A stretch of DNA of 64,000 nt, from assembly GCA_014801865.1 (NCBI GenBank), contig JAAVDH010000039.1, positions 3,657 through 67,656 on the forward strand, given 5' to 3'. This DNA comes from Bacteroides sp. Lineage in GTDB: Bacteria; Bacteroidota; Bacteroidia; Bacteroidales; Muribaculaceae. The notes beneath the pieces were generated by a model, which ran no database searches, had not been told where the DNA came from, and saw nothing but the letters and a program-made list of their open reading frames with translations. Each line of letters opens with the position of its first letter. Positions within the stretch are counted from its first letter, which is position 1. Below, in pieces: positions 40,943 through 63,377 of this stretch. A program made the translations under genes and the position numbers.

Positions 40943-42238
40943 ATGGAAAATGAAGCAAAAGCGAAGAGCGCGATAGCTATGCCTGATGAGGGCAAGAGTT
41001 ATGTGAGTGCTTTTCTTACAATGGTATTCCTGTTCTTTATCGTAGGGTTTCTTACGACAGTGAACACTCAGTTTCAGGCGCCGCTCAAGGCCGCTTTTCT
41101 CGGCGAAACCGGAGCGATGCAAAATACATTCGCCACGTTGATTACCTTCTCGTGGTTCTTGGCATATCCGGTATGTGGTTCGTTGGGCTCGCGATGGATC
41201 AATGCCGGGGGGTATAGATCAACTCTGGTGAAGGGATTAGGCATGATGGCCGCGGGGCTTATACTGTTTCTCCTGTCGGCGCAGAGCGCGGTGTCTATGC
41301 CCGGAGCGGGTATCTCCGTAGGCAGTTTCTTTGTGCCTCTGGGCTTCATGATCTTCCTCTTAGGGTCGTTTGTCACCGGAGGTAGCGTGACAGTGCTCCA
41401 GGTGGTTATCAATCCTTATCTGACGGCATGTCATGTCAAGGGCACTCAGGGGGTGCAGCGCATGGCTATCGGCGGCTCGGCCAATTCGATAGGTACGGCG
41501 ATAGCTCCTTACTTCGTCACGGGTGTAATATTCGGAGGCATGGCGCTTGACAGCGTATCGCTGGATGCCCTTATAGTACCTTTCGCGGTGCTGGCTTGCA
41601 GCATCATAGCTCTCGGAATATGGCTGCGCACAATCAATCTGCCCGACCTCAACGCCACCCGTAGCGAGAGTGACGAGAAACTGCCCCGCAGCGTATGGTC
41701 GTTCCGCCACCTGACTTTAGGTGTAGTGGCTATTTTCTTCTATGTCGGAGCCGAGGTATGTATAGGGGCCAATATCACTATGTATGCCCTTGAGCTGTCG
41801 CTTGAGTCTGTGGCTGTAATCACCACACTCTATTGGGTCGGTATTCTTGCCGGGCGTCTTGTAGGAAGCAGTCTCAGTACCGTGTCACCACGTATACAGC
41901 TTACAGTCACCACTGTAGGTGCTACTGTACTGACTATAGCCGCTATCGTTGCCGACAGTCCCTGGCTGCTTGCTTCGGTAGGTCTGTGCCACTCGATAAT
42001 GTGGGGTTGTATCTTCACTCTTGCGGTGAAGGGCTTGGGACGCTACACTACCGTGGCCTCGGGTGTGTTCATGATAGGTGTGGTAGGCGGTGCTGTCCTG
42101 CCCTTGCTTCAGGGTGTGTGGGCCGATATGGCCGGCAGCTGGCGCACCACATGGTGGATAGTAGTGGCGAGCGAACTGATAATGTTGTATTATGCCCTGA
42201 TAGGCAGTAAGATAAAAGACAATGAAATTACGAAATAA
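40943..42238 (+). CDS. MFS sugar:H+ symporter (FucP/GluP/NagP family)
   Basis: About 12 TM helices; LQVVINPY, IFFYVGAEV and GVVGGAVLP motifs. Confidence 0.9.
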   Translation: MENEAKAKSAIAMPDEGKSYVSAFLTMVFLFFIVGFLTTVNTQFQAPLKAAFLGETGAMQNTFATLITFSWFLAYPVCGSLGSRWINAGGYRSTLVKGLGMMAAGLILFLLSAQSAVSMPGAGISVGSFFVPLGFMIFLLGSFVTGGSVTVLQVVINPYLTACHVKGTQGVQRMAIGGSANSIGTAIAPYFVTGVIFGGMALDSVSLDALIVPFAVLACSIIALGIWLRTINLPDLNATRSESDEKLPRSVWSFRHLTLGVVAIFFYVGAEVCIGANITMYALELSLESVAVITTLYWVGILAGRLVGSSLSTVSPRIQLTVTTVGATVLTIAAIVADSPWLLASVGLCHSIMWGCIFTLAVKGLGRYTTVASGVFMIGVVGGAVLPLLQGVWADMAGSWRTTWWIVVASELIMLYYALIGSKIKDNEITK

Positions 42239-43937
42239 ATTATTCGCGGCGGCTTGCATAATGGCGAGTCTCGTAGGTTGTAAGAGTGCGGCAGACGCAC
42301 AGAATGATTATATAAAGGAAGATAAGGTCGTGGCGGCGTACGTGACCTCATGGTCAGACGTAATGCCTGATCCCGCGCTGCTGACGCATGTCAACTATGC
42401 TTTCGGGGGTGTGAACGAGACATTTGACGGTGTAAGCATAGCCAATGAGCCCCGCTTCGCTCAGATAGTGAACATCAAGAAGACCAAGCCCGAATTGAAG
42501 GTGCTCCTGTCAATAGGAGGGTGGGGCAGTGGCCGGTTCAGCGAAATGGCCGCAAACGACAGTCTGCGCAATTCATTTGCCAAGGACTGCGCACGTATAG
42601 TGAATGACTACGGTATAGACGGAATAGACATCGACTGGGAATATCCCGGAAGCAGTGCGGCGGGCATATCTTCGTCGGAGAATGATAAGGAGAACTTTAC
42701 CCTGCTCATGAGGGATATCCGCAGCGCTATAGGTGATGATAAGTTGCTGACACTGGCGAGTGCCTGTACCCCGGAGTATATTGATTTTCGTGCGGTAATG
42801 CCTTACGTGGACTTCGTGAATCTGATGACATACGACATGGGCAACGCCCCTCTGCACCATGCAGCGCTGTATCAGTCGGAGAATACTCCCGAAATGACTT
42901 GCGAGAGCTCGGTGAAGGCGCATATCGCAGCCGGTGTGCCGGCCGGAAGACTGGTGCTCGGTCTTCCTTTCTACGGCAAGGGCGCCGTGGGCGAGCATGG
43001 CGCTGACTATAGAAATATCACTGTGCCGGAGGGCGGGTCGATAGTATTCGACTCTGTAGCGATGGTGCCTTATGTAGCCGATGCTACAGGCAAGATGGTT
43101 CTTGGATTTGACAATGCAGAGTCGATTGCCGCCAAGTGTCGTTTTGTAGATGAGAATGGGCTGCTCGGTGCGATGTACTGGGATTATGCCGGAGATAATA
43201 ACGAGAAGGAATTGGCTACTACGGTGTATAATGCCATAAGTGGTCAGGAGGTATTGCCTCATATTCTGGTGCTGAATGAGGGAGGCGGTCAGCATGGTCC
43301 CTTCACGAAGGTGGCTATGGAGTGGCTTCGCGCTCAGGCTACGCAAAAGGGTTACCGCATCACGGAGCTGCGTAATGCCGGCCCTATCACGCGTGAGTAT
43401 CTCAAGGATTATCCTTTGGTGATACAGCTTGATTTCCCTCCTTACACATGGCCAGAAGAGGCTCAGGAGGCGTTTACAGATTATATCGATAATGGTAAGG
43501 GCTCGTGGATAGGTTTTCACCACGCGACGTTGCTCGGCGAGTTTGACGGATATCCGATGTGGGACTGGTTCTCGGATTTCATGGGCGGTGTACGTTTCCA
43601 AAACTATGTGGCGGCTCTGGCCGACGGCACAGTATGTGTGGAGGACTCGATTCATCCTGTGATGAAGGGGGTAGACCCGAAGTTTGTGCTTCGCGATGAT
43701 GAGTGGTATACCTATAATGTCTCGCCTCGTCAGAATGTGAAAGTGCTGGCCTCGGTAGATGAATCGACGTATACTCCCGATTCGGAAGTCAAAATGGGTG
43801 ATCATCCTGTGATATGGACTAATCCTGAGAAGAAAGCGCGCAATGTGTACTTCCAGTTTGGACATAGTCCGAAGCTGTTTGAGAGCGAAAACTTCACCCG
43901 ACTTTTCTCTAATGCTATAGATTGGGCAATCGAATAA
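42222..43937 (+). CDS. Lipoprotein GH18 chitinase-like enzyme fused to a C-terminal ThuA-like (class I GATase-fold) domain
   Basis: Lipobox LVGC; SIGGW, intact DGIDIDWEYP, MTYD; C-domain GFHHA...DEWY...DHPVIW...FGH. Confidence 0.92.
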   Translation: MKLRNKLFAAACIMASLVGCKSAADAQNDYIKEDKVVAAYVTSWSDVMPDPALLTHVNYAFGGVNETFDGVSIANEPRFAQIVNIKKTKPELKVLLSIGGWGSGRFSEMAANDSLRNSFAKDCARIVNDYGIDGIDIDWEYPGSSAAGISSSENDKENFTLLMRDIRSAIGDDKLLTLASACTPEYIDFRAVMPYVDFVNLMTYDMGNAPLHHAALYQSENTPEMTCESSVKAHIAAGVPAGRLVLGLPFYGKGAVGEHGADYRNITVPEGGSIVFDSVAMVPYVADATGKMVLGFDNAESIAAKCRFVDENGLLGAMYWDYAGDNNEKELATTVYNAISGQEVLPHILVLNEGGGQHGPFTKVAMEWLRAQATQKGYRITELRNAGPITREYLKDYPLVIQLDFPPYTWPEEAQEAFTDYIDNGKGSWIGFHHATLLGEFDGYPMWDWFSDFMGGVRFQNYVAALADGTVCVEDSIHPVMKGVDPKFVLRDDEWYTYNVSPRQNVKVLASVDESTYTPDSEVKMGDHPVIWTNPEKKARNVYFQFGHSPKLFESENFTRLFSNAIDWAIE

Positions 43938-44004
43938 GAAATACACAATTAATACATATATAAATTAGATTAGCGTTTAAATACTGAAACGATTGGTTAG
44001 TGAA

Positions 44005-44040
44005 AGCGCTGTGCAGTGATAGGCACAGCGCTATTTTTTT
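44005..44040 (+). terminator. Terminator after GH18-ThuA
   Basis: AGCGCTGTGC-AGTGATAG-GCACAGCGCT followed by ATTTTTTT. Confidence 0.85.
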
Positions 44041-44214
44041 GCTTTAATCCGCAAGCGTATTATGCGGGGGACGAAGCTGATTGGGAAGAGGAGAGAGGGA
44101 ATGGAGCAATAGGACGGGAGATGGGTGAAGGGAAATGACGCAATAGGGAGGGAGATGGAAGGGAAAGAAGGGGGTAACGGGTTATTTTGCTGGTAGAGAG
44201 GCGGGGAATGATGC

Positions 44215-44274
44215 TTTTTCGACCTTTAATGACGGTTTTTCGACCCCGGCAGGGAGCTTGGAGGGCTAAATTTG
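44215..44274 (+). promoter_or_regulatory. Putative HTCS operator plus -7 element of the susC operon
   Basis: TTTTTCGAC-CTTTAA-TGAC-GGTT-TTTCGACCC, then TAAATTTG at 44267. Confidence 0.8.
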
Positions 44275-44311
44275 CGATATCAATCATTAATCACCATTAA
44301 AATCTTAACAC

Positions 44312-47300
44312 ATGAAACTCAGATTCATCATGCTGATTTTCGCGCTATGCAGCATCCTCGGGATGACAGCCCAGCAACTTTCGATAAGTGGCGTGGTTGT
44401 AGACCCCGAAGGTGAACCTCTGCCCGGCGTAAGCGTCATTGTTCAGGGTACGTCCAACGGTACGGCTACGAATATCGACGGTAAATTTAATATCAAGGCC
44501 GCCACAGGTGAGCATCTCCTTTTCTCGTATATAGGATATGATACGGAGAAAGTAGCAGTAAAGGCGGGTAACACTAATCTTAAAGTGGTACTTAACGAGA
44601 GCAGTGAGGTGCTTGACGAAGTAGTGGTAATCGGCTACGGCGTGCAGAAGAAGAAACTCGTCACCGGTGCTACGGTACAGGTAAAGGGCGATGAGATCGC
44701 AGCCCGCAACACTGTGAGCCCCATAGGCGCTCTTCAGGGTCAGACTCCGGGTGTGAACATCATGTCTATGGGCGGTAAACCCAACTCAGGCTTTAAGGTG
44801 AATATCCGCGGTGTCGGAACCAACGGCGACTCAGACCCCATCGTGGTAGTTGACGGTCTTGTAGGTACCCTCAGCAATCTCAATGAGCTGAACCCCGGCG
44901 ATATCGAGTCGATAGATATCCTCAAGGACGCTGCCTCAACGGCTATTTACGGTGCCCGCGCCGCTAACGGTGTGATTCTCGTCACCACCAAGCATGGCTC
45001 GGAGGGCAAGACCAATATCACATTCGATGCATACGTGGGCTGGCAGAACATAGCCAAGCGTCCTCAGATGCTAAACGCTCAGGAGTATATGTATATATAT
45101 GACGTGGCCAGAATGTATGAGGGCAATGCTCCCGTAGACTGGGCGTCACTCATACCCGAACGCTATTACAATATGCTTCAGGAGGGTTGGACCGGAACAG
45201 ACTGGCTTGATCTGATGATAGGTAAGGACGCTCCTCAGCAGAGCTACAACCTCGGTGTGTCAGGCGGCAGCCAGATGGGTAGCTACGCCATCGGCCTCGG
45301 CTATACCTCACAGGAGGGTGTGATGCTCCGCGACTATATCAACTCAAAGTTTGAGCGCGTGACAGCACGTATCAATTCAGACTGGAACGTAGTCAAGCAC
45401 GGCAAGCGCAATGTGCTTAAGTTTGGCGAAAATCTCATGCTGTCGTTCAACAACTCTAACGGCATGGACGCCGTGAGCACCGGTGGCGCATGGAGCAATA
45501 CCGTACGTCAGGCCCTCAAGGCATCGCCTCTCTTTACCTGCTATGATGAAAACGGCGACATCGTGAAGGGTGCCAGCTGGCTCAATGACTCTCAGATGAA
45601 CCCCGTGAGAGGTGCTACCCGCGGCGGTATCGACAACTGCAACAGCAAGTATTATTCAGCCCGCGGTAACTTCTATCTCCAGTTAGAGCCGATAGATAAC
45701 CTCGTGCTCCGTTCAAATCTCGGATTCGGCTATAGCGGCAACACTTCGCGCAGCTACAGCACACCTTATAATGACGCTCCCTTCGGTTCTGCTACAGTGG
45801 ACCGCATCAGCCAGAGCTCAGGCAACTACTATTCATGGAGCTGGGAAAACACCCTCTCATACAGCTTTGACGTAAACCTCAACCATATCACAGCCCTCAT
45901 CGGTACATCAGCCGAGAAGTGGGGTTACGGCGAGGGCCTGTCAGCATCGCGTGTAGGCAACACCTTCGGCGACTGGCTCCACGCATATATCAGCAACGGC
46001 ACATCGCTGGCTACCGATCCCGGAGCATGGGATATGAGCGGATGGCCCAGCAGCCCCGGAGCCATCAACTCATACTTCGGACGTCTGACCTATGACTACG
46101 ACTCACGCTATATGGCTACCGCCACTCTCCGTGCCGACGGTTCGTCAAACTTCGCAAGAGGTCACCGCTGGGGTTACTTCCCCTCATTCAGCGCCGGCTG
46201 GAATATCTCGCAGGAATCATTCATGGAATCGACCCACGACTGGCTCAATCAGCTTAAGCTCCGCGCAAGCTGGGGTCAGAACGGTAATGCCAACATCGCC
46301 AACTTCCAGTATCTCGCCACGGTATATGTAGGTGGCGCCGACTATTTCTTCGGTGACGATAAGGTAAATAAGGTAATCGGTTCGTACCCCAACAAGATTG
46401 CCAACCCCGACCTTTCTTGGGAACGCTCAGACCAGTGGAATGCCGGTATCGACATGAGCATGTTCAACTCTAAGCTGACCCTTAACCTCGACTGGTATCG
46501 CAAGACCACCAAGGACTGGCTCGTAAACGCTCCTATCCTCGCTTCATACGGTACGGGTGCTCCCGTCATCAACGGTGGCGATGTGCGTAACCAGGGTCTG
46601 GAATTTGCCGCCAACTGGCGTTCTAATATCGGTGAGTTCAGCTACTCTGTAGGCGCCAACGTAGCCTGGAACAGAAACAAAGTGACCCGTCTGGCCAATG
46701 ACCAGGGCGTAATCAACGGTCCCGGTGATGCAGTGCTTCAGAACTCTACCTACATATCACGTATCGAGGTAGGCCATCCTATCGGCTTCTTCTATGGCTA
46801 CAAGACCCTCGGTGTATTCCAGAACAAGGAGCAGATCAACAACTACCGTAATGCTGACGGCAACATGATTATGCCCACAGCCGTGCCCGGTGACCTTATC
46901 TTCTTTGACCGCGACGGTGACGGACAGATATCTGACAACGATAAGATGGAAATCGGTGATCCTCATCCCGACGTGACCCTCGGCATCAACATCCAGCTCT
47001 TCTACAAGGGCTTCGACCTCGGAGCCAACGGTTATGGCGCATTCGGCCAGCAGATAGCCAACAACTATCGTGATCACACTTCATCGGGCTATGATAACTG
47101 GACTTACAACCTTGCTTCACAGGTATGGCACGGTGAAGGCACCTCAAACCGCTATCCCCGTCCCTCGACCTCAAGCCATCAGAACTGGGCGTACATCTCT
47201 GACATTTATGTAGACAATTCAGACTACTTCCGTCTTCAGAGCCTGACTCTCGGCTACGACTTCAAGGCCCTCTGTAAGAAGATGCCCCTGTCACAGTGTC

Positions 47301-47470
47301 GTCTCTACGTGAGCGCAACCAATCTGTTTACAATCACCAAGTACAAAGGCTTCGATCCCGAAATCGGTACTGACGGCAACTGGGGCGGTACACCCTGGGT
47401 GCAGGGCGTTGACCAGGGCTTCTATCCCGGCAACCGTACATTCCTCATTGGTGTAAACATTAAATACTAA
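44312..47470 (+). CDS. susC: SusC/RagA TonB-dependent transporter
   Basis: CarboxypepD_reg-like N-domain, DEVVVIGYG, LKDAASTAIYGARAANGVILVTTK, RADGSSNF and LSWE motifs. Confidence 0.97.
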   Translation: MKLRFIMLIFALCSILGMTAQQLSISGVVVDPEGEPLPGVSVIVQGTSNGTATNIDGKFNIKAATGEHLLFSYIGYDTEKVAVKAGNTNLKVVLNESSEVLDEVVVIGYGVQKKKLVTGATVQVKGDEIAARNTVSPIGALQGQTPGVNIMSMGGKPNSGFKVNIRGVGTNGDSDPIVVVDGLVGTLSNLNELNPGDIESIDILKDAASTAIYGARAANGVILVTTKHGSEGKTNITFDAYVGWQNIAKRPQMLNAQEYMYIYDVARMYEGNAPVDWASLIPERYYNMLQEGWTGTDWLDLMIGKDAPQQSYNLGVSGGSQMGSYAIGLGYTSQEGVMLRDYINSKFERVTARINSDWNVVKHGKRNVLKFGENLMLSFNNSNGMDAVSTGGAWSNTVRQALKASPLFTCYDENGDIVKGASWLNDSQMNPVRGATRGGIDNCNSKYYSARGNFYLQLEPIDNLVLRSNLGFGYSGNTSRSYSTPYNDAPFGSATVDRISQSSGNYYSWSWENTLSYSFDVNLNHITALIGTSAEKWGYGEGLSASRVGNTFGDWLHAYISNGTSLATDPGAWDMSGWPSSPGAINSYFGRLTYDYDSRYMATATLRADGSSNFARGHRWGYFPSFSAGWNISQESFMESTHDWLNQLKLRASWGQNGNANIANFQYLATVYVGGADYFFGDDKVNKVIGSYPNKIANPDLSWERSDQWNAGIDMSMFNSKLTLNLDWYRKTTKDWLVNAPILASYGTGAPVINGGDVRNQGLEFAANWRSNIGEFSYSVGANVAWNRNKVTRLANDQGVINGPGDAVLQNSTYISRIEVGHPIGFFYGYKTLGVFQNKEQINNYRNADGNMIMPTAVPGDLIFFDRDGDGQISDNDKMEIGDPHPDVTLGINIQLFYKGFDLGANGYGAFGQQIANNYRDHTSSGYDNWTYNLASQVWHGEGTSNRYPRPSTSSHQNWAYISDIYVDNSDYFRLQSLTLGYDFKALCKKMPLSQCRLYVSATNLFTITKYKGFDPEIGTDGNWGGTPWVQGVDQGFYPGNRTFLIGVNIKY

Positions 47471-47478
47471 TATCCGCA

Positions 47479-49260
47479 ATGAAACTCAATAAAATAATAA
47501 GCAGCCTCGCTATAGCCGCGCTGCTTACAGGTTGCTCGGAGAGCTTTCTGGATACCGACAACCTTACCTCAAAAGACTCAAGCAACTTCCCGGCGAACAT
47601 TACCGACGCCGAGGAGATAGTGACCGGTATCTATCGCCCCGTGATGGGTGATGCCGATAATCCTGCCAATAATGTGATGTTCGTAGCCGAGCTTATGAGC
47701 GACGAACGCTTCGGTGGCGGCGGTAAGGATGACGGCGCCGTGCAGTCAGTGGCATACTACAAGAAGATGAGCGACAATCAGTACTCAGGCCTCTGGAGCC
47801 GCTGCTACGAAGGTATCTACCGTTGTAATTACCTCCTCTCCGTGGAGGGTCAGATAGACTGGGCCGGCGATGAAGAGACCCGTGGCAGAGTCATGGGCGA
47901 AGGTTACTTCATGCGTGCATATTACTACTTCGACCTGCTGCGTCTGTTCGGCAATGTGCCCATGCCTCTTACTCCCGAACCTGCCAATCTGCCTCAAGCT
48001 ACTCCCGAGGATGCTTTCGGTCAGGTAGCATCAGACCTTCTGAACGCTATCAACCTGCTCCCCGAAAAGAAACATGCCGGAGTCAATGGCGTAGGCACTG
48101 ACGGCCACGCTACCCGCTGGGCTGCCGAGGCTCTTCTGGCGCGTGTGTTCCTGTTCTACACCGGTGTATACGAGAAGGAATCGATTACTCTGGCCGAAGA
48201 TGGCGGCACTCTGACCAAGCAGGATGTAATCCGTCATCTCGAAGACTGTATCGAAAATTCCGGCCACGACCTTGCCGCAAAGTTCGGCGACCTATGGGCC
48301 TACTCAGCCGCAGGTGACTACTGGATCAATGAGAAGTATGGCTATAGCTGGCTGGGCGACTGTGCCGGATGGCAGGGCTGGGAAGGCCAGACCGCCGGTT
48401 ACCGCGACAATCCCGAGACGGTGTTTGCCATCAAGCATGCCTATGGCTCGCAGTACTACGGACGTAACCTCACCGTGCTGTTCTTCAGCCCCCGTTATCA
48501 GGATGCCGACAACCCCAATAGCGACGGCGACGGCTGGGGTGGTGTCTACCCCTTCGGTACAGGCTGGGGCGGTGGTACAATCACTCCCAATATCTACAAC
48601 ACATGGCCTTCTGACGACCCTCGCCGCAAATCGTCAATCCTCAATATGGATGATCCCGAAGAGGGTATGACATATCATGACAATGGCGGCCACCAGGTAG
48701 AAGATACCCACATGTTTAACAAGAAGTATATCGCTATCAACGTTCACACCGAAAAGATGGTGTCAAAGGATTCTCAGAACGGTCCCGGCGCAGTGGCTCT
48801 CTACTGGTATTGCTACCCTGAAATCATGGATACCGACAATGACTACATGTCATGTAACTTCATGGACGAGATTGCTATACGTTTCGCCGACGTGCTTCTG
48901 ATGCACTCCGAACTGACCGCTACCGCCGAGGGTATCAACCGAGTGCGCAGCCGTGTAGGTCTTGATGCTGTGGCATACTCTGATGAGAATCTCCGCAACG
49001 AACGTCGTTGGGAGCTGGCCTTCGAGGGCATACGCTTCTTTGACCTCAAGCGCTGGCATCTGCTCAACCTCGTTGACGAACACCGTACCGGTATAGAAGC
49101 CATGTGTGACGGTAACATGCGCACCGTTTCTGTGCCTCACCGTCCTGAGACCAAGGGCCTTCTGCCTATCCCCGACGATGAAATCAAGAAGTCAAACGGT
49201 GTACTCGTACAGAACGCCGGTTGGAGTTCCTCTGAGGGTAACTTTACAAGTCCCTACTAA
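47479..49260 (+). CDS. susD: SusD/RagB glycan-binding lipoprotein
   Basis: Lipobox LTGC; GEGYFMRAYYYFDL, IRFADVLL and NERRWELAFEGIRFFDLKRW motifs. Confidence 0.96.
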   Translation: MKLNKIISSLAIAALLTGCSESFLDTDNLTSKDSSNFPANITDAEEIVTGIYRPVMGDADNPANNVMFVAELMSDERFGGGGKDDGAVQSVAYYKKMSDNQYSGLWSRCYEGIYRCNYLLSVEGQIDWAGDEETRGRVMGEGYFMRAYYYFDLLRLFGNVPMPLTPEPANLPQATPEDAFGQVASDLLNAINLLPEKKHAGVNGVGTDGHATRWAAEALLARVFLFYTGVYEKESITLAEDGGTLTKQDVIRHLEDCIENSGHDLAAKFGDLWAYSAAGDYWINEKYGYSWLGDCAGWQGWEGQTAGYRDNPETVFAIKHAYGSQYYGRNLTVLFFSPRYQDADNPNSDGDGWGGVYPFGTGWGGGTITPNIYNTWPSDDPRRKSSILNMDDPEEGMTYHDNGGHQVEDTHMFNKKYIAINVHTEKMVSKDSQNGPGAVALYWYCYPEIMDTDNDYMSCNFMDEIAIRFADVLLMHSELTATAEGINRVRSRVGLDAVAYSDENLRNERRWELAFEGIRFFDLKRWHLLNLVDEHRTGIEAMCDGNMRTVSVPHRPETKGLLPIPDDEIKKSNGVLVQNAGWSSSEGNFTSPY

Positions 49261-49285
49261 TTAAAATCCTTAAAAAGTCGAAACA

Positions 49286-50245
49286 ATGAAAATCCAATCA
49301 ATCATAAGCCTTGGCGTCGCTCTGGGTATAGGACTGTCATCATGTATCCATACTCAGGTAGATGACAATCATGAAGCCTTTAAGAATCAGATGCTATCTG
49401 ATAGCCAGAAAGAGGCTCTTTCACAGCAGTTTGCCGCTGCTTTCAGATATGAGAACGGCGAGAACCATTCAAATAAGGTGACTGTAATAAACAACAGCGG
49501 ATATGACTGCCGCCTTGACTACATGGTGGGCACATTGATGCTCGGCAGTGGCAAAGACAATACGGTAGACGTCGTGGTGCCCTTTGCCGGCGACCTCACA
49601 TTCACTGCTACAGTGCTTTACGACGGTGCATATATCGATGTTGCAATCCCTGTCCATGTAGATGATCTTGACAATGACCTTGACCCGCTTTTCGTGGCTC
49701 TTACCGATGGCACAGCCGAAGGCAAGACCTGGGAATGGTGGGTAGGCTACGACTACGAGAACGGTAACTACTCCTACGTCGACGGCTCATGGGGCTGCGT
49801 AGGTGGCGGCGGTTACGGATGGTCTGCAACCGGTCCTAACTGGGTCTGCTATGAAGTAGGTCAGGAAGATGAGTGGACAGGCCAGAAGGTGACCATGGAT
49901 GAATGGGTGAAATTTGACCTTGACGGTGGTCCTAATGTAACAGTCCACTACAGCGACGGCACTGAGAAGAAGGGAACCTTCGCTCTCACCTCGGGCACGA
50001 CTCCCGAAAAGGCAGCGCTTGGCTGGACCGGTACAATGAAGCTTACCGTAGACCTTCCCCACCAGATTAACAACAGCCAGTATAGTTGGTATCTTGACCT
50101 TCCCGCGGTATTTGACGTGGTACTTACCTCTGATGATCCCGACCATCTGATTCTGATAGCTCCCGGTGGTGGTGGCGCACACACTATCTGTGACGATAGC
50201 TGGGGTATCAGTTCTACCCACTGGACTTTCCAGGTTAAAAAGTAA
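49286..50245 (+). CDS. Surface lipoprotein, putative SGBP-B (SusE-positioned glycan-binding protein)
   Basis: Lipobox LSSC, Trp/Tyr/Gly-rich, directly after susD. Confidence 0.75.
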   Translation: MKIQSIISLGVALGIGLSSCIHTQVDDNHEAFKNQMLSDSQKEALSQQFAAAFRYENGENHSNKVTVINNSGYDCRLDYMVGTLMLGSGKDNTVDVVVPFAGDLTFTATVLYDGAYIDVAIPVHVDDLDNDLDPLFVALTDGTAEGKTWEWWVGYDYENGNYSYVDGSWGCVGGGGYGWSATGPNWVCYEVGQEDEWTGQKVTMDEWVKFDLDGGPNVTVHYSDGTEKKGTFALTSGTTPEKAALGWTGTMKLTVDLPHQINNSQYSWYLDLPAVFDVVLTSDDPDHLILIAPGGGGAHTICDDSWGISSTHWTFQVKK

Positions 50246-50402
50246 ACAAGAGTTTCTGAGTCAGTCAACAAAATTTGACGATCAGTCATAATGGTGTTCG
50301 TCACTGCAGTCACTTATGACCTCCGGGCTCATTATGACGACTACTTCTTTCAACTTCAAAACACTCCGAAAATTTTGTTGGCTGACTTAGTTTATGTTTA
50401 CT
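50241..50402 (+). ncRNA. Putative structured intergenic RNA (3' UTR element of the susCD operon)
   Basis: Nested stems 50241-48/50395-402, 50256-76/50370-90 (both mismatches are G-U on the + strand) and 50285-93/50330-38. Confidence 0.5.
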
Positions 50403-50462
50403 CAAAACCAAATTTACTTAGGAGTATATCAGGTAAAAAGATAGATTGTTAGATTGCTCTAC

Positions 50463-50514
50463 GAACGCCGCCTGAATCTATCGCTGATAGTATTCAGTTG
50501 GCGTTTCTTTTTTC
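50463..50514 (+). terminator. Intrinsic terminator between the SGBP and GH9 genes
   Basis: GAACGCC-GCCTGAATCTATC-GCT-GATAGTATTCAG-TTGGCGTTTC followed by TTTTTTC. Confidence 0.75.
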
Positions 50515-50568
50515 AGGAGTATATTATACTCTAACATAAGATATCTCTTAGGATATCGCCATTTGCTT

Positions 50569-52929
50569 ATGTTACTATCATCACTTTTGCTATTGCTCGG
50601 ATGTATGCTTTCGTTGCCGGGAACAGTAGATACCGCCCGTTCGCTCGAGGCGGAGGCCGCTGTGAAACCGGTGCTGGAGGAGTGTGTGCTCCACGCGGGC
50701 GACAGCATTATTTCATTTGATGTAGACCCACGGGGAGGACGTGCCAAGGGACATCCCTCTGATCCGGATTATGCGGTCTACGGTCACAAGTCGGTATATT
50801 TCGACTTGGGTGGCCGCTCTATCGAGGATTACAACCGTCTCGAATTCATCATCACTCCCGAATGTCCCGGCCTCAGGGTGATTAATCTCACCGTGGGCTT
50901 TGAAAATGCCTCGGCTGTGGGCAAAGGGTATAACGCTCCGGTAGGGGAGCATCTTATTCACCTCGACAACGGCAGGGAGAACCACTGTTACCTTGAGGTG
51001 GCCGATCTTCGGCGCGACAATATGAGCGGACTCCGCTTTACGGTGACTCTTAAGGGCGCCGACCTAAATGTCAAAGGGGAGTCGAAGATTCATATCAAAA
51101 GAATAGCGGCACAGCGTGTGCCATATACAGAGCAGATAAGCGGTTGGGCTCCTCAGTCTGACCGTATCATCTACTCTATGAGCGGCTATGCGGCCGACGG
51201 AAAAAAGACGGCAATAGTAAGTTGCGACCGTCTGAAGAAGGATAAGGAGTTTATTCTGCGTGATGCCGATACGCGACGTGTGGTTCTTGAAGGTAAATCC
51301 GAAGTGCAGTCTACCACAACAGGACGCTATGGCGTGATAGATTTCAGCAGCGTTGACCGCCCGGGCCGTTATCTGCTTGAAGCTGGCGGACTGACCACAG
51401 ATACGTTTACTATAGGTTGTGACAGTCAGCTTTGGGATGAGTCGTGTGGCAAAGTTCTCAATTTTATCTACAGTATGCGATGCGGATACCCGGTGTTTGG
51501 CGTCCACTCTATGTGCCATACCGACCTGTTCAGTGTACATAATGGGGTGAGTCGCTCTTACGCGGGTGGTTGGCACGATGCCGGTGACCTCTCGCAGCAG
51601 ACTCTCCAGACTGCCGATGTCGTTTACTCTCTGCTTGAACTCTATGACCGGAAGCGCGACTCAGATCCCGCCTTCGCTTCGCGTCTCAGAGAGGAGGCCT
51701 TGTGGGGACTCGACTTCATATTACGTACACGATATGGCGACGGTTACCACGCCAGTAGTATGGGACTGCTGATATGGACCGACGGGGTCATGGGTAGCCA
51801 TGACGATATAACCACCGTAAGAGTGCAGAACGCTTCGTTTGACAACTATCTCTACGCGGCCTATGAGGCTTATGCGGCCAAGATACTTGCCGATGACAGT
51901 GCTTTCGCCACTTACCTTACCCAGGTAGCTCAGGAAGATTATGACTTCGCTTGCGAGAAGTTCAGGGAAAGCGGGTTCGGAGGATGGATTTCGCCCTACG
52001 AGCATACTTACTGCACAAGCGAGAGTCAGCACATGGCCTCGGCAAGCTGGGCGGCTTCGATGCTTTATGATCTTACAGGCAATCCTGACTATGCCGGTGA
52101 TGCTGTCAATTATGCACGCTACGTTCTCGACTGCCGATGCACGGTGCCGGTGGGCAAAGAGGAACTTAGCGGATTCTTCTACCGCACACCGGAGAAAAAA
52201 TCGGTGGTACACTTCATTCACCAGTCGCGCGAGCAGGTCTACATGCAGGCTTTTGAGGCCTTGTGCCGTACCCAACCTACGCATAGCGACAAGCCACAGT
52301 GGTATGACGCTATCTGCGATTACGGCCGGTATCTTAAGGCCATTATGAAGTATACCGCTCCCTACGGTATGTTGCCGAGCGGCATATACCATGAGGATGA
52401 GCCCTCCGATACTGATGCATTCTTCGCGCTCCATCTGTTTCCGCCGTCTGACGCCAAGGAGCGTTTTGCCACGCAGCGCAAGCATGGAGTAGATGTAGGC
52501 GACGGCTATTTCGTGAAGCGTTTCCCAGTGTGGTTCAATATCTATAACGGCAATCTTGCCGTGCACACCTCTATGGGTAAGTCAGCGGCAATATGTGCCA
52601 AGTGTATGCAGGATGATACACTTATGGATATAGCCCGCGAACAGCTCTACTGGATTGTGGGTAAGAATCCTTTCGCTCAGTCATTGATTTATGGCGAGGG
52701 TCATCGCTATCCTGACCTGAACAATTTCTCTTCAGGACGTATTACAGGGGCAATGCCTGTAGGTATCCGTAGTCTTGACGACAGTGACGAGCCATACTGG
52801 CCCCAGTTTAATTGTGCTTGCTACAAGGAGGTCTGGGTCACCTCTGCCGGAAAATGGCTATCTTTAGTAGCCGAAACTGACGGGTTTGCTGAAAACGGCT
52901 CTCAGCCGCTATACTCTAAGGCTGAGTAA
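50569..52929 (+). CDS. Glycoside hydrolase family 9 (exo-beta-glucosaminidase-like candidate)
   Basis: Signal peptide, Ig-like domain (SGYAADGKKTA), GGWHDAGD, WIVGKNP, C-terminal YKEVW acid. Confidence 0.85.
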   Translation: MLLSSLLLLLGCMLSLPGTVDTARSLEAEAAVKPVLEECVLHAGDSIISFDVDPRGGRAKGHPSDPDYAVYGHKSVYFDLGGRSIEDYNRLEFIITPECPGLRVINLTVGFENASAVGKGYNAPVGEHLIHLDNGRENHCYLEVADLRRDNMSGLRFTVTLKGADLNVKGESKIHIKRIAAQRVPYTEQISGWAPQSDRIIYSMSGYAADGKKTAIVSCDRLKKDKEFILRDADTRRVVLEGKSEVQSTTTGRYGVIDFSSVDRPGRYLLEAGGLTTDTFTIGCDSQLWDESCGKVLNFIYSMRCGYPVFGVHSMCHTDLFSVHNGVSRSYAGGWHDAGDLSQQTLQTADVVYSLLELYDRKRDSDPAFASRLREEALWGLDFILRTRYGDGYHASSMGLLIWTDGVMGSHDDITTVRVQNASFDNYLYAAYEAYAAKILADDSAFATYLTQVAQEDYDFACEKFRESGFGGWISPYEHTYCTSESQHMASASWAASMLYDLTGNPDYAGDAVNYARYVLDCRCTVPVGKEELSGFFYRTPEKKSVVHFIHQSREQVYMQAFEALCRTQPTHSDKPQWYDAICDYGRYLKAIMKYTAPYGMLPSGIYHEDEPSDTDAFFALHLFPPSDAKERFATQRKHGVDVGDGYFVKRFPVWFNIYNGNLAVHTSMGKSAAICAKCMQDDTLMDIAREQLYWIVGKNPFAQSLIYGEGHRYPDLNNFSSGRITGAMPVGIRSLDDSDEPYWPQFNCACYKEVWVTSAGKWLSLVAETDGFAENGSQPLYSKAE

Positions 52930-52964
52930 AAACGAAAAAAACAAACAATATTTAAGCAATAGAT

Positions 52965-53774
52965 ATGAAAATTTTAAAAAACATACTGGCATTATTTGCC
53001 ATCGCAATATCTCTTTGTGCTTCTGCTCAGGGCAGTGACTACCCTGCAAATTATGCCCGCGCCCCTCGTTTTAAGGCGCTCCTGGTTTATTCTGACACGG
53101 CAGAGCCGGCTCATGTAGACTTCGCTAATGATGCCGTTGACTTTTTCAAGCGTCTCACAGTAGGCGACGGGTGGATTCTCGATACTTCAACCACTTTCGC
53201 AGGCTACAGCTACGAACGTCTCAAGGAGTATAACATGCTCATTGTAATCAATATCTCTCCGGCCCCCGGCGCAGAGCGTGAAGCCTTTGAGAAGTATATG
53301 GAGAATGGCGGAGGCTGGCTCGGTTTTCATGCCGCCGGTTACACTGACCGTTCGACCGATTGGGCGTGGTTCAACCGATTCCTCGGTTGCGGTAATTTCT
53401 ATTGCAACAACTGGCCTCCGCAGCCCGTACTGCTGACTCTCGACAATACAACGTGTGATATCACACGCAATCTGCCCGCAGAGTTCGTTGCTCCCGAGAG
53501 TGAGTGGTATCAGTTCAATCCTTCACCTCGTGAGAACGCTGATGTGGAGATACTTGCTTCGATATCTCCCAAGAATTATCCGCTGGGCATCAAGGATGTG
53601 ATAAGCTTCGGTGACTTCCCTATAGCGTGGCGCAACAAGAATTACCGAATGGTATATCTTAACTACGGTCACGGCGACAAGGAGTTTACTGACGCTACGC
53701 AGAATCTCATGACCGTAAATGCTTTCCGCTACGTGGCAAGTCATGCTCCCGAAGGTAATCCTTTTAATAAGTAA
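52965..53774 (+). CDS. Stand-alone secreted ThuA-like domain protein
   Basis: Signal peptide ASA|Q; GGGWLGFHAA, SEWY, DFPIAW and YGH, parallel to the GH18 C-domain. Confidence 0.85.
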   Translation: MKILKNILALFAIAISLCASAQGSDYPANYARAPRFKALLVYSDTAEPAHVDFANDAVDFFKRLTVGDGWILDTSTTFAGYSYERLKEYNMLIVINISPAPGAEREAFEKYMENGGGWLGFHAAGYTDRSTDWAWFNRFLGCGNFYCNNWPPQPVLLTLDNTTCDITRNLPAEFVAPESEWYQFNPSPRENADVEILASISPKNYPLGIKDVISFGDFPIAWRNKNYRMVYLNYGHGDKEFTDATQNLMTVNAFRYVASHAPEGNPFNK

Positions 53775-53779: not shown

Positions 53780-55039
53780 ATGAATAAGGGAATTTCAGTT
53801 TTTACTATGGTCATATCACTCGCTACTGTCGCCTGCACCGGGGGCAGTGGCGAGTACGCCTCTTCGGAAAAGAACTTTCTGCATGTCGACGGGCATAATA
53901 TCGTAGACTCAAAGGGTGACACGTTCTATATCAAAGGTACCAATCTCGGCAATTGGCTCAACCCCGAGGGATATATGTTTGGCTTTGCCAAGATTAATTC
54001 TGCCCGCAAAATCAATGAGGCGCTGTGTGAACTCGTAGGACCTACCGAGGCAGCACGCTTCTGGCAGGAGTTTAAGGATAATTATATCACGTCAGCCGAC
54101 TTTGAGTTTATATCCTCGACAGGAGCCAACACGGTCAGAGTACCGTTTCACTACAAGCTCTTCACTAATGAGGACTACATGGGGCTTAATGATGCTGAAG
54201 AAGGTTTCCGCCGCCTTGACAGTTGCGTGGTGTGGGCGCGCAATAATAATCTGCGCCTTATACTGGATATGCACGACTGCCCCGGCGGTCAGACCGGCGA
54301 TAATATTGACGATAGCTATGGTTATCCATGGCTCATGACTGACACTGTGGCTCAGGAGCAGTTTATAGACATCTGGGCAAAGATAGCCGATTATTACGCC
54401 GACGAGGATGTGATACTCGGTTATGAGCTTGCCAACGAACCTGTGGCTACTTACTGGGAAGGTGCCGAACGCGACTCGCTCAATGCCGCCCTTGAACCAT
54501 TGTATAAGCGTGCTGTGGCTGAAATCCGTAAGCACGACGCCAATCATATAGTATTGTTAGGCGGTCCGCAGTGGAACAGCTATTTCGGTAATTTTACCGA
54601 CTGGACCTTTGATGATAACATCATGTATACCTGCCACAGATATGGCGGCGACGCAACACGTGAGGCCATCGACGAGTACATATCATTCCGTGATAAAACC
54701 AACCTACCTATGTATATGGGTGAGATCGGCCATAATACGGATGAATGGATGAGTAACTTTGTCGATGTAATGCGACAGAATAATATCGGTTACACTTTCT
54801 GGCCTTACAAGAAGATTGGCGACAGCTCCATGACCGGGGTACAGGCTCCTGAGGAATGGGGCAGTCTGGTGGAGTATGTAGAGGCTCCACGAACTTCTTA
54901 CGGAGAAATCCGTGAGGCCAGAAAACTTTGTTCTCAGCAGCAGGGCAGGGCATTGCTGAATGAATTTATAGAAAATGCCAAAGCCGAAAAAATGCTCAGA
55001 CACGATAACTACATATCGGCTATCCAACTCAATAAGTAA
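53780..55039 (+). CDS. Glycoside hydrolase family 5 lipoprotein
   Basis: Lipobox TVAC; GTNLGNWLNPEGYM, LDMH, NEP acid/base, GEIG nucleophile, WPYK. Confidence 0.92.
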   Translation: MNKGISVFTMVISLATVACTGGSGEYASSEKNFLHVDGHNIVDSKGDTFYIKGTNLGNWLNPEGYMFGFAKINSARKINEALCELVGPTEAARFWQEFKDNYITSADFEFISSTGANTVRVPFHYKLFTNEDYMGLNDAEEGFRRLDSCVVWARNNNLRLILDMHDCPGGQTGDNIDDSYGYPWLMTDTVAQEQFIDIWAKIADYYADEDVILGYELANEPVATYWEGAERDSLNAALEPLYKRAVAEIRKHDANHIVLLGGPQWNSYFGNFTDWTFDDNIMYTCHRYGGDATREAIDEYISFRDKTNLPMYMGEIGHNTDEWMSNFVDVMRQNNIGYTFWPYKKIGDSSMTGVQAPEEWGSLVEYVEAPRTSYGEIREARKLCSQQQGRALLNEFIENAKAEKMLRHDNYISAIQLNK

Positions 55040-55050: not shown

Positions 55051-57309
55051 ATGAAAACCAATCTTATCACTGCGGCACTCGTGGCGGCTATGTTTACGGC
55101 CACAGCATCTTTTGCCGATGTGCCTGCATATCTTGATGACTCTCTGCCGATAGAGGAGAGGGTGAATGACGCTTTGTCGAAAATGACGGTAGCTGAGAAG
55201 GTGGCTATCATCCATGCTCAGAGCAAATTCAGTTCTCCCGGTGTGCAACGTCTCGGCATACCAGGCGTATGGTGTACGGACGGCCCTCACGGTATTCGCC
55301 CCGATGTACTGTGGGACGAATGGGATCAGGCCGGCGCTACAAACGATTCGTGTGTGGCATTTCCAGCGCTGACCTGTCTCGCCGCCACATGGAATCCCGA
55401 GATGTCGTATCTCTATGGAAAGTCTATCGGTGAGGAAGCACGCTACAGAAACAAGAATGTGCTCCTCGGGCCGGGCGTTAATATCAACCGCACTCCTCTC
55501 AACGGACGTAATTTCGAGTACATGGGTGAGGACCCCTACCTGTCATCGCGTATAGTGGTGCCCTATATCAAGGGTGTGCAGGAGAATGGTGTCGCAGCGT
55601 GTGTCAAGCACTATGCTCTCAATAATCAGGAGGTGGATCGTGCGTTTGTCAATGTACTGGTCGATGACCGCACTCTTCACGAAATATATCTTCCTGCCTT
55701 TAAGGCGGCGGTGACCGAGGGCGAAGCCTGGGCCATCATGCCCGGATATAATAAGTATAATGGTGAACATGCGTGTGAAAATCCGGTGCTTCTGCTTGAC
55801 ATTCTTAAGGGAGACTGGGGATTTGACGGAGTAGCCATAAGTGACTGGGGAGCTGTGCATAACACAGATAAAGTGGCGCAGAGCGGACTGGATATGGAGT
55901 TCGGTTCGTGGACCAACGGTCTCAACTGGGGTGCGAGCAACGCTTATGACAATTACTATCTGGCCAAACCCTATGAGAAGATGATACTTGACGGCACACT
56001 CCCGATGGATGGCCTTGACGACAAGGCCCGCAGAGTGCTGAGACTGATAATGCGCACTGAGATGAACCGCCATCGTCCTTACGGCTCGCTCAATAGCGAT
56101 GAGCATTATGCCGCCGCACGTAAGATAGGCGGTGAGGGTATAGTGTTGTTGAAAAACCAGAACGACCTTCTGCCCGTCAGCTCCGAAGTCAGAAAGATAC
56201 TTGTAGTAGGGGAGAACGCCATAAAAATGATGACCGTAGGCGGAGGTTCTTCGTCGCTGAAAGTACAGCGTGAGATGCTTCCTCTTGACGGGATAAAGGC
56301 CAAGGCGGCCGACTGCGGTATAGAGGTGGCCTATGAGCGCGGCTATGTGGGTGATGTCACCGGAGAGTACAACGGCGTGACCACAGGTCAGAATCTCAAT
56401 GATGACCGTTCGGCCGAGCAGCTGATCGCCGATGCCGTTAAGGCAGCCAAGGAGGCTGATATGGTGATTTTTATCGGTGGACTTAATAAGGCTGATCATC
56501 AGAATGCAGAAGCAACCGACCGCGAGAGTTTCGCTCTACCCTACAATCAGGATCGTGTGATCGAGGCTCTTTACGAGGCCAATCCCCGTCTGGTGGTGAT
56601 GAATCTTACCGGCAACGCTTATTCGATGCCCTGGGTTAATAAGGTTCCGGCAATAGTTCAGGGATGGTATATCGGCTCTGAGGCGGGCAATGCCATTGCC
56701 GATGTGCTGTTTGGCGACGTGAATCCTTCCGGCAAACTTCCTATGACGTTTGCTAAGGAACTTAAGGATTATGCCGCTCATGCTGAGGCTGATTCAACGA
56801 TGTATCCCGGTGTAGGGGGCGATGTGATATATAAGGAGGGGTTGAACGTCGGCTACCGGTATACGGACCGCCTTAAGCCCTCGCGTATCAACTATGCTTT
56901 TGGCCACGGACTGAGTTATACCGACTTTAAGCTCGGTAAGCCGGAGTTGTCCGTCGCCGGAGATGAGAGTGACGTGAGATATACCGTGACTGTTCCCGTA
57001 ACGAATATCGGTGGCGTAGATGGCGCGGAGGTCGTTCAGGCGTATGTGCGCGATGTCAAGAGTAGCGTTGCCCGACCGGAGAAAGAGCTTAGGGCTTTTG
57101 CTAAGGTAAAGGTGGCTCCCGGACAGACCGAAGAGGCTGTTCTGACATTCGACCGCAACGCTTTTGCATACTATGACCCGGACGATGCGAAGTGGACTCT
57201 TGAAGCCGGCAAGTTTGAGATACTTATAGGTACGTCATCTGACAACATTGTGGCTAAAGTGCCGGTTACCGTCGGCAAGTCGCAGAAGTGGGCCGACTCT
57301 GAGCGCTAA
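55051..57309 (+). CDS. Glycoside hydrolase family 3 beta-glucosidase-like (with Fn3 domain)
   Basis: DGPHG, GRNFEYMGEDP, KHY, ISDWG nucleophile, PSGKLPMTF and FGHGLSYT motifs. Confidence 0.95.
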   Translation: MKTNLITAALVAAMFTATASFADVPAYLDDSLPIEERVNDALSKMTVAEKVAIIHAQSKFSSPGVQRLGIPGVWCTDGPHGIRPDVLWDEWDQAGATNDSCVAFPALTCLAATWNPEMSYLYGKSIGEEARYRNKNVLLGPGVNINRTPLNGRNFEYMGEDPYLSSRIVVPYIKGVQENGVAACVKHYALNNQEVDRAFVNVLVDDRTLHEIYLPAFKAAVTEGEAWAIMPGYNKYNGEHACENPVLLLDILKGDWGFDGVAISDWGAVHNTDKVAQSGLDMEFGSWTNGLNWGASNAYDNYYLAKPYEKMILDGTLPMDGLDDKARRVLRLIMRTEMNRHRPYGSLNSDEHYAAARKIGGEGIVLLKNQNDLLPVSSEVRKILVVGENAIKMMTVGGGSSSLKVQREMLPLDGIKAKAADCGIEVAYERGYVGDVTGEYNGVTTGQNLNDDRSAEQLIADAVKAAKEADMVIFIGGLNKADHQNAEATDRESFALPYNQDRVIEALYEANPRLVVMNLTGNAYSMPWVNKVPAIVQGWYIGSEAGNAIADVLFGDVNPSGKLPMTFAKELKDYAAHAEADSTMYPGVGGDVIYKEGLNVGYRYTDRLKPSRINYAFGHGLSYTDFKLGKPELSVAGDESDVRYTVTVPVTNIGGVDGAEVVQAYVRDVKSSVARPEKELRAFAKVKVAPGQTEEAVLTFDRNAFAYYDPDDAKWTLEAGKFEILIGTSSDNIVAKVPVTVGKSQKWADSER

Positions 57310-58714: not shown

Positions 58715-58747
58715 TAACCAATTTTCTGATAACCAATCTTTGCAGTG

Positions 58748-61842: not shown

Positions 61843-62115
61843 CTAACTGAACAGTTCCGAATGGGAGCCTAAACGAACAAGGCTGATTTCGTCAGTGTCG
61901 GGATCAAACCATATTAGCAGAAAATCACCTTCGATATGACATTCCATGTGCCCGGCGTAATCTCCCGTCAATGGATGCGGACGATTTTCTTCGGGTATCG
62001 GCAATTCGTTTTGCAGTAATTCCAAGATCTTGAAGAGCTTTTCAACTTTCTTGGGAGTATTACGAAAGCGTTTATAGTCTTTCTTATATTGCCTTGTAGG
62101 TTTGAGCTTTTTCAT
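61843..62115 (-). CDS. yafQ: Type II TA toxin, YafQ-family mRNA interferase
   Basis: HPLTGDY, ECHIEGDFLLIW and RLGSHSELF motifs. Confidence 0.93.
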   Translation of the reverse strand: MKKLKPTRQYKKDYKRFRNTPKKVEKLFKILELLQNELPIPEENRPHPLTGDYAGHMECHIEGDFLLIWFDPDTDEISLVRLGSHSELFS

Positions 62116-62366: not shown

Positions 62367-62379
62367 GGCTATATTATTT

Positions 62380-62720: not shown

Positions 62721-62807
62721 TGTGGTAGTCAGTAATAATATTCTTGTATGGGATATTCATTGGTGATTGTCTAATTCTTTTCATAACCAAATAAAATACC
62801 AATTCTA

Positions 62808-63352: not shown

Positions 63353-63377
63353 CGTTATAAATTAAAACTGCTCTCCT

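Follow-up and report, generated by a model that had tools for sequence, protein, structure and literature searches.

The founding member of the ThuA family (PF06283), ThuA of the rhizobial and Agrobacterium thuEFGKAB trehalose operon, is a cytoplasmic protein that works on disaccharides together with ThuB, an oxidoreductase of the Gfo/Idh/MocA group. Here, we analyze two ThuA domains encoded by a 64,000-nucleotide stretch (the window) of contig C39 in the metagenome-assembled genome, 71% complete, of a gut Bacteroides sp. placed in the Muribaculaceae. One domain is fused to a family 18 glycoside hydrolase (GH18) and the other is a stand-alone protein; we call domains of these two kinds f-type and s-type, respectively, and number residues as in the window's 269-residue stand-alone protein. 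Unlike the ThuA/ThuB pair, both proteins are exported, have no oxidoreductase partner (PF01408 is absent from C39, and its three matches in the genome fall on other contigs), and show a link to GH18, GH9, and NagB. Exported by lipobox (the fusion) or signal peptide (the stand-alone protein) and lacking such a partner, they are, to judge from their sequences, not the ThuA of trehalose/3-keto-sugar metabolism. The ThuA module is probably catalytic rather than binding, and we tentatively propose that the two domains are exported catalytic modules of a yet-unassigned carbohydrate-active family that remove acyl groups in a chitin/chitosan locus.

Three other systems invite comparison. The chitin pathway of Thermococcus kodakarensis runs through a chitinase, the deacetylase Dac (a PIG-L/LmbE protein of carbohydrate esterase family CE14), the exo-glucosaminidase GlmA (GH35), a glucosamine kinase, and a deaminase. 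It shares the logic that we propose below, from chitinase through de-N-acetylation and exo-glucosaminidase to phosphorylation and deamination without NagA, but here the candidates for the middle steps are ThuA and GH9, and the genome's PIG-L domain is fused to a NagB-like protein on another contig. The closest solved relative of the s-type protein is BACUNI_01602 of Bacteroides uniformis ATCC 8492 (PDB 4JQS and 4PXY, "putative ThuA-like protein"; ~67% identity, E = 6.8e-118). The sole mention of 4JQS that we found in the literature is as a fold neighbor of PelA, and our search returned nothing on GH18-ThuA proteins, this locus, BACUNI_0159x-0161x, or ThuA biochemistry. Finally, in the levan utilisome of Bacteroides thetaiotaomicron, the C-terminal domain with which the surface glycan-binding protein binds levan is ThuA-like in fold (PMC7618045); that domain belongs to a fructan-binding surface lipoprotein, whereas the window's proteins are predicted to be periplasmic and soluble or fused to an enzyme.

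By Pfam, the fusion carries GH18 at residues 37-325 (E = 5.7e-67) and ThuA at residues 348-569 (E = 1.8e-41; nucleotides ~43263-43928), and the stand-alone protein carries ThuA at residues 39-257 (E = 1.8e-30). The two ThuA domains score 143.1 and 107.2 bits on PF06283, for which the cut-off is 33.4, and both cover positions 2-209 of the 209-position profile; aligned with each other, they are 30% identical across 221 residues (E = 4e-25). Four motifs recur in the fusion and the stand-alone protein, respectively: GFHHA (43512-43526) and GFHAA (53322-53336), DEWY (43698-43709) and SEWY (53499-53510), DHPVIW (43800-43817) and DFPIAW (53613-53630), and FGH (43857-43865) and YGH (53664-53672). The lipobox of the fusion is LVGC with Cys20, and the signal peptide of the stand-alone protein is cleavable at ASA/QG. 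No ThuA genes other than these two were found in the genome.

An AlphaFold2 model of the stand-alone protein (predicted local distance difference test [pLDDT] score, 93.5) has a fold like that of class 1 glutamine amidotransferases (GATase1) and is closest to solved ThuA-like proteins. In this model, the His of the GFH motif sits at the turn from strand 95-99 to helix 100-103, which is the nucleophile-elbow position, and the C-terminal Gly-His comes after a strand, as the catalytic His does in amidotransferases; by secondary-structure position alone, His236 would be the equivalent of that catalytic His. When the s-type alignment was compared, as a profile, with the amidotransferase domain of the genome's own CTP synthase, no usable alignment resulted. 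The Cys-His-Glu triad of amidotransferases is missing, with His at the elbow and no Cys there in the family alignments, and the exchange of Cys for His indicates that the window's ThuA proteins are not glutamine amidotransferases. An earlier note on this DNA had described a GH18-fused and a stand-alone ThuA-like domain with the four shared motifs, one on a lipoprotein and one secreted and soluble, with His at the elbow and without a Gfo/Idh/MocA or DUF1080 partner; the Pfam matches, export signals, and model bear out this description, and C39 has no match to PF01408 or PF06439.

Pfam and NCBIfam scans of the two proteins return GH18 and ThuA only, with no match to CE4, CE9 (NagA), or CE14 (PIG-L), and a look-up in the ESM Atlas returned ThuA clusters only. 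On the Pfam ThuA model, the window's proteins score 107 to 146 bits, compared with 220 to 256 for the top-scoring ThuA matches in a sample of 251 genomes of the order; they form a separate subfamily within PF06283.

The strongest point in favor of a catalytic role comes from the architectures of relatives. PF06283 is large: in a full-library search, this one profile by itself detected 3,653 clusters (50% identity). Among relatives with E values of 1e-59 to 1e-73, ThuA is the sole module of secreted proteins other than carbohydrate-binding modules (CBMs); the latter are CBM6/35, CBM32, or ricin-type CBM13, and several of the proteins end in a sorting tail of the type IX secretion system (T9SS). 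CBMs are normally attached to catalytic modules, and this layout is that of a secreted carbohydrate-active enzyme. The earlier note's "candidate new carbohydrate-active family" is thus backed as to the carbohydrate-active role, but the word "new" calls for qualification, since the family has a Pfam entry and a solved orthologue structure (4JQS/4PXY). What is new is the chitin/chitosan context and, possibly, an activity.

Residue conservation points the same way. His50, His122, Glu180, Arg189, Asn224, His236, and several Trp and Tyr residues are invariant in an alignment of the f and s types and of a divergent third type, x, and 20 diverse PF06283 members and both window domains all have the elbow His, Glu-x-Tyr, and Gly-His. 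The CBM-bearing relatives keep His50, His122, Glu180, and His236, and all except one keep Arg189. Asp128 and Asp217, which are invariant within the gut clade, are replaced (Thr/Gln and Tyr) in the CBM6-linked relatives. That the His/Glu/His set stays constant in such dissimilar contexts points to a common chemistry more than to a common ligand, and the invariance of these residues and Arg is a further reason to favor catalysis. In one reversed ThuA-GH18 fusion (P0374), the conserved His residues are apparently lost (position 50 aligns with Gln, position 122 with Gly, and position 236 with a gap); this may be a degenerate copy.

A SusC/SusD locus on a JGI metagenome contig (L085, 6707-17264) also argues for a catalytic role. 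It encodes SusC/SusD, an AraC-type response regulator, a ROK protein, NagB, a 147-residue open reading frame, and three ThuA domains (one 4E5V-like ThuA and one fused f-s ThuA), with no recognizable glycoside hydrolase. An SGSH-like sulfatase gene is divergently transcribed there. The small open reading frames upstream of the ThuA genes in L085 and in another locus, L004, show no homology to each other.

To assess co-occurrence, we took one genome per species, collected orthologues of the stand-alone ThuA, and mapped homologs of the window's proteins within 10 kb. This gave 29 loci with an orthologue of 57 to 74% identity, from Bacteroidaceae, Prevotellaceae, Muribaculaceae, Tannerella, Proteiniphilum, and others. 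An f-type ThuA lies nearby in 19 of them, GH9 in 17, and GH18 in 15; at least one of the three is present in 24/29 loci, and NagB, ROK, and major facilitator superfamily (MFS) genes are frequent. The usual gene order is ROK, NagB, MFS, (GH18-ThuA f-type), GH9, ThuA s-type. The remaining five loci have a solitary s-type ThuA with unrelated neighbors, and no oxidoreductase was found there. Over the 29 loci, median identity is 60% and 57% for the ThuA domains, 52% for GH18, 48% for GH9, and 66% for NagB; that the ThuA domains are better conserved than GH18 and GH9 also favors a catalytic role. A protein that occurs on >10,000 metagenome blocks is identical to 4JQS, and B. uniformis thus shares this arrangement; the B. 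uniformis locus differs in being split across two strands and in having no GH5, GH3, NagX-like, or GH20 genes within its 10-kb flanks. In a genome of another class (L080), an exported GH9 is followed after 25 nucleotides by an exported f-type ThuA, with no other genes of the locus around. The link of ThuA to GH18, GH9, and NagB, which the earlier note had suggested looking for and whose absence it had counted toward refutation, is thus strong and repeated and is not one inherited accident.

In the window, the locus spans 35070-60967, with all genes co-oriented on the + strand from the regulator to GH20 (Pfam/NCBIfam). With adjacent SusC/SusD genes, a regulator, and GH18, GH9, GH5, GH3, and GH20, all on this strand, it constitutes one polysaccharide utilization locus (PUL). 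Its genes are as follows.

35070..39038, + strand, hybrid two-component sensor/regulator (HTCS) that opens the locus (Pfam Reg_prop, Y_Y_Y, HisKA, HATPase_c, Response_reg, HTH_18).
39182..40156, + strand, ROK-family sugar kinase (Pfam ROK, E = 2.3e-50; 51 to 70% identity in related loci; no equivalog above cut-off in the NCBIfam scan).
40178..40924, + strand, NagB-like glucosamine-6-phosphate deaminase (Pfam Glucosamine_iso; NCBIfam NagB models, E = 3e-52, below cut-offs; kept in 9/29 related loci).
40943..42238, + strand, MFS sugar transporter, GluP/NagP-like (Pfam MFS_1; NCBIfam gluP, E = 4.7e-45, and NagP, E = 1.9e-38, both below cut-off).
42222..43937, + strand, GH18-ThuA fusion lipoprotein of 571 residues (Pfam GH18 and ThuA; lipobox LVGC).
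44312..47470, + strand, SusC-like TonB-dependent transporter (Pfam CarbopepD_reg_2, Plug, TonB_dep_Rec_b-barrel).
47479..49260, + strand, SusD-like lipoprotein (Pfam SusD-like_3, SusD_RagB).
49286..50245, + strand, lipoprotein at the position of a surface glycan-binding protein (lipobox LSSC; no match to Pfam or NCBIfam; a 72%-identical syntenic homologue in L008/L012).
50563..52929, + strand, GH9 enzyme with CelD_N (Pfam GH9, E = 1.4e-21; lipobox-like LLGC; HDAGD at ~51574; TTG start uncertain).
52965..53774, + strand, secreted stand-alone ThuA, s-type, 269 residues (Pfam ThuA, E = 1.8e-30; signal peptide).
53780..55039, + strand, GH5 lipoprotein (Pfam Cellulase, E = 1e-35; lipobox VAC).
55051..57309, + strand, GH3 exo-glycosidase with signal peptide (Pfam GH3 N- and C-terminal domains and an Fn3-like domain).
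57575..58714, + strand, NagX/HGSNAT-like membrane acetyltransferase (Pfam HGSNAT_cat, E = 1.1e-7; NCBIfam NagX_SO_3504, E = 2.6e-38 over the full length, below cut-off).
58745..60967, + strand, GH20 beta-hexosaminidase with signal peptide (Pfam Glyco_hydro_20, E = 2.8e-71; CHB_HEX_C).

Neither a NagX-like gene nor GH20 or another hexosaminidase was detected in the 29 related loci, so the NagX-like and GH20 genes are add-ons of the window's locus. The two adjoin each other, which suggests periplasmic acetylation of glucosamine residues. A 317-nucleotide noncoding gap (50246-50562) lies upstream of the GH9 gene, whose sole in-frame start in the open frame is a TTG, followed by the lipobox-like LLGC. 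Outside the locus, positions 2001-6000 and 62001-64000 have a G+C content of 0.37 to 0.40, compared with ~0.50 elsewhere, and may be foreign or mobile DNA.

The partners of the ThuA domains suggest a substrate. The DxxDxDxE motif of GH18 reads DGIDIDWE (residues 133-140; nucleotides 42618-42641), and the nearest solved relatives of this part are chitinases (5GZU, E = 4.5e-81), not endo-N-acetylglucosaminidases; models of Endo H and EndoS match it weakly. The GH9 subfamily of the window is rare, occurring in 1/250 other genomes of the order sample, and the stand-alone ThuA gene lies directly 3' of GH9 in the window as well as in 17 of the 29 related loci. The best solved relatives of the window's GH9 are in the Vibrionaceae GH9 group that includes 5DGQ/5DGR, at weak E values of 7e-11 to 5e-8. 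The ThuA-linked GH9 of L080, by contrast, is closely related to 5DGQ/3H7L over its full length (E = 1e-133 to 1e-135), and it resembles the whole exo-beta-D-glucosaminidase group (5DGQ/5DGR, 3H7L, and 6GDT) along its full length (E = 1e-130 to 1e-135), whereas the window's GH9 is distant, with 25% local identity to the L080 enzyme and a 190-residue N-terminal extension of its own. A glucosaminidase-type substrate of the window's GH9 is thus suggested by distant relatives. The solved relatives of the window's GH5 are GH5 glucanases and exo-glucanases.

Fusions couple ThuA to chitin cleavage in several ways. Orthologous GH18-ThuA (f-type) fusions are 79 to 83% identical to the window's protein, and GH18 is fused to an s-type ThuA in >35 clusters, including one from a complete genome of the window's own family; with the reversed ThuA-GH18 order, three arrangements occur. 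A GH20-ThuA fusion also exists, and in Muribaculaceae and Proteiniphilum, GH18 and ThuA are encoded by separate adjacent genes. Many Bacteroidota combine the f and s types in one polypeptide of ~500 residues, and in the Chitinophagaceae, type x precedes f-s in proteins of ~870 to 950 residues. All ThuA relatives that we inspected have signal peptides. The AlphaFold2 model of a natural f-s fusion shows high pLDDT for each domain, a low-confidence linker, and a predicted template modeling score (pTM) of 0.55. On account of this beads-on-a-string model, we dropped the idea, raised by the fusions, of an f-s heterodimer or fixed interface; prediction of a complex between the f-type domain and the s-type protein scored 0.00, which speaks neither for nor against it. 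We conclude that the f and s paralogues are functionally linked and claim no physical link.

The complete genome with the GH18-ThuA (s-type) fusion (G149) encodes it together with GH5 and GH3 (L075:6332-11635); NagA, PIG-L, NagB, and the window-type GH9 were not found in this genome. There, chitin cleavage may serve glucan access rather than amino-sugar catabolism.

More distant f-s pairs are partnered with an alginate lyase, SGSH-like sulfatases, a GH13-like enzyme, and GH97. Single proteins add to this variety: an alginate lyase domain (PF05426) is fused to ThuA in P0309 and P0317, and in the former, Pfam shows two ThuA stretches after an alpha/alpha-toroid-like region of weak score; P0361 combines ThuA with an FGE-sulfatase-like domain; and P0413, P0428, and P0410 each carry two ThuA domains with a pyrroloquinoline quinone (PQQ) glucose/sorbosone dehydrogenase, CBM6, and PKD repeats.

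How might such a module work? In the acyl-removal reading, the ThuA modules would act in the periplasm beside the GH18 chitinase and the GH9 enzyme. GH18 would cut chitin into chito-oligosaccharides, and ThuA would hydrolytically strip acyl decorations, here the N-acetyl groups of the oligosaccharides from GH18. Cellulase-type enzymes (GH9 and perhaps GH5 and GH3) would then trim these oligomers, now glucosamine-ended, and free glucosamine would pass through the MFS transporter to the ROK kinase and NagB. The active site would be the former glutamine-amidotransferase pocket, in which one His replaces the nucleophilic Cys and a second takes the position of the catalytic His, joined by the invariant Glu, Arg, and N-terminal His; it may be a metal site. 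We infer both the involvement of a metal and the order of the steps. As to the bond that is cut, the N-acetyl amide is a first guess, to be held loosely. That the f/s clade is a new, possibly metal-dependent, de-N-acetylase/de-acylase family on a GATase fold, with His for Cys and serving a periplasmic route that bypasses NagA, is a still more doubtful proposition.

We nevertheless prefer de-acylation over other chemistries for several reasons. It explains why cellulase-type GH9, GH5, and GH3 enzymes lie beside a chitinase and a glucosamine catabolic cassette, and it suits a module that is fused to GH18 and coupled to a GH9 of glucosaminidase type. Within the GATase1/DJ-1/S51/HTS fold, those members that are active use the nucleophile elbow to cleave acyl groups or to transfer them, and de-acylation matches this chemistry. 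De-acylases are commonly fused to many glycoside hydrolase and polysaccharide lyase families, with CBMs, and an enzyme that removes decorations would be expected to have many partner enzymes and CBMs, as seen with the alginate lyase, sulfatase, GH13-like, and GH97 proteins.

The earlier note had gone further, supposing that ThuA might supply a missing de-N-acetylase/amidase activity and naming as a check its co-occurrence with GH18, GH9, and NagB in PULs lacking NagA. NagA was not found in the window's genome, at its 71% completeness, or in two complete genomes of its family. On another contig (C27:12123-14066, locus L011), the window's genome encodes a 664-residue NagB-like/PIG-L fusion (NF002557, 914 bits), and all of its CE4 and PIG-L matches are on contigs other than C39. 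Such fusions are above cut-off in 59 of the 251 genomes in the order sample and are far commoner than NagA (14/251). The fusion is a plausible NagA substitute and may be the usual N-acetylglucosamine (GlcNAc)-6-phosphate deacetylase in this order. We rejected the idea that ThuA tracks NagA loss, as NagA is commoner in the ThuA-bearing genomes (12/29) than in the order sample. The association with GH18, GH9, and NagB thus survives, its tie to NagA loss does not, and the premise of a missing activity is weak, given the NagB-like/PIG-L fusion in the genome, the NagX-like gene in the locus, and the failure of ThuA to track NagA.

Several of these observations also weigh against the acyl-removal reading itself. 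A NagX-like acetyltransferase in the locus implies that glucosamine-ended material is present and becomes acetylated, the opposite of deacetylation, and a NagX-like glucosamine N-acetyltransferase would counteract a broad periplasmic deacetylase. The NagB-like/PIG-L fusion can account for GlcNAc use without NagA, and NagA presence is not anticorrelated with ThuA. G149, with its GH18-ThuA protein yet no NagB, NagA, or PIG-L, implies that the module can occur apart from glucosamine catabolism. Acyl hydrolysis seldom relies on a His as the nucleophile-position residue, and in Pfam and NCBIfam, the ThuA proteins do not match known esterase or deacetylase families. Relatives fused to PQQ sugar dehydrogenase or lactonase-like propellers, and a canonical ThuA that adjoins a Gfo/Idh/MocA gene, point to oxidized-sugar chemistry, and one reversed ThuA-GH18 fusion lacks the histidines. 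A literature search found no biochemically defined reaction for any PF06283 member, despite several crystal structures. GATase-like domains are noncatalytic in GH42-type enzymes and have no assigned role in PelA, Agd3, and NDST1.

Of the alternatives, the one that fares best, although we consider it unlikely, is a noncatalytic accessory module that binds chito- or chitosan-oligosaccharides or scaffolds partners near GH18 and GH9, either like a CBM or as a periplasmic glycan-binding protein. The placement of ThuA C-terminal to GH18 or GH20 is CBM-like, and tandem x-f-s arrays with flexible linkers, as in the f-s model, would suit such a role, as would the invariant Asp/Glu and many Trp/Tyr residues in the binding of cationic amino sugars. 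The reversed fusion persists despite its lost histidines, GATase-like domains are structural in GH42, GH151, and GH164 enzymes and in PelA, Agd3, and NDST1, and the domain with which B. thetaiotaomicron's surface glycan-binding protein binds levan is a precedent for the fold (PMC7618045). On the other hand, a ligand-binding role accounts poorly for a His/Glu/His set that is invariant family-wide in very different contexts, for conservation above that of the catalytic GH partners, and for relatives with CBM6/35/32/13 and T9SS tails in which nothing besides ThuA is a candidate for the catalytic module; it would also leave L085 without any enzyme. Moreover, the proteins have signal peptides and are soluble, not surface lipoproteins.

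It is less probable that ThuA acts on oxidized or reactive sugar derivatives, such as keto-sugars, lactones, or glucosamine-derived dicarbonyls, in a clean-up or follow-up step rather than on chitin itself. The canonical ThuA next to a Gfo/Idh/MocA oxidoreductase (L089, in another genome) and the relatives fused to PQQ glucose/sorbosone dehydrogenase, to lactonase-like/SGL propellers, or to an FGE-sulfatase domain are consistent with this view, as are a Chitinophagaceae-like locus (L051:111-10847), in which a triple ThuA has as neighbors a copper amine oxidase and a GH9 fused to two AhpC/redoxin domains, and L003, in which a MarR regulator and a glutathione synthesis gene flank a fused f-s ThuA. 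A redox/stress thread shared with L051 and L003 may be noted in the solved GH18 entries 6T9M/6TSB, which bear the title "Peroxiredoxin." Yet Gfo/Idh/MocA is absent from C39, no oxidoreductase is present in the 29 related loci as far as these are annotated, the periplasm is without NAD(P), and a clean-up role does not readily account for so tight a coupling to GH18 as a fusion.

Similarly improbable is a new glycosidase, an exo-acting beta-N-acetylglucosaminidase or glucosaminidase that trims GH18 products to monomers and complements GH9: although the conserved core (ROK, NagB, MFS, GH18-ThuA, GH9, ThuA) comes without a detectable hexosaminidase in the 29 loci, the only possible glycoside hydrolases of L085 are its ThuA domains, Asp128, Glu180, and Asp217 are invariant in the gut clade, and the CBM and T9SS layout suits a glycosidase as well as an esterase, both Asp residues are replaced in the CBM6-linked relatives, the window's locus with its GH20, GH3, GH5, and GH9 lacks no glycosidic step, and no fold relative is a glycosidase catalytic domain.

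The locus offers candidate substrates, chitin- or chitosan-derived oligosaccharides, and partners, GH18 and GH9, for the large family PF06283, and it occurs in a culturable, abundant human gut species, B. uniformis, whose ThuA protein has already been crystallized. If the ThuA module is an enzyme, it would found a new carbohydrate-active family, and chitin/chitosan loci of gut, rumen, and insect-associated Bacteroidales would need reannotation; if it is a binding module, it would represent a new CBM-like family with a fold not yet classed as such. Should the de-acylase reading be true, gut Bacteroidales, B. uniformis among them, would gain a periplasmic route from chitin to glucosamine that bypasses NagA, and other bacteria would deploy CBM-bearing secreted enzymes of the same family. 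Either way, these domains bear on how gut bacteria use fungal and insect chitin.

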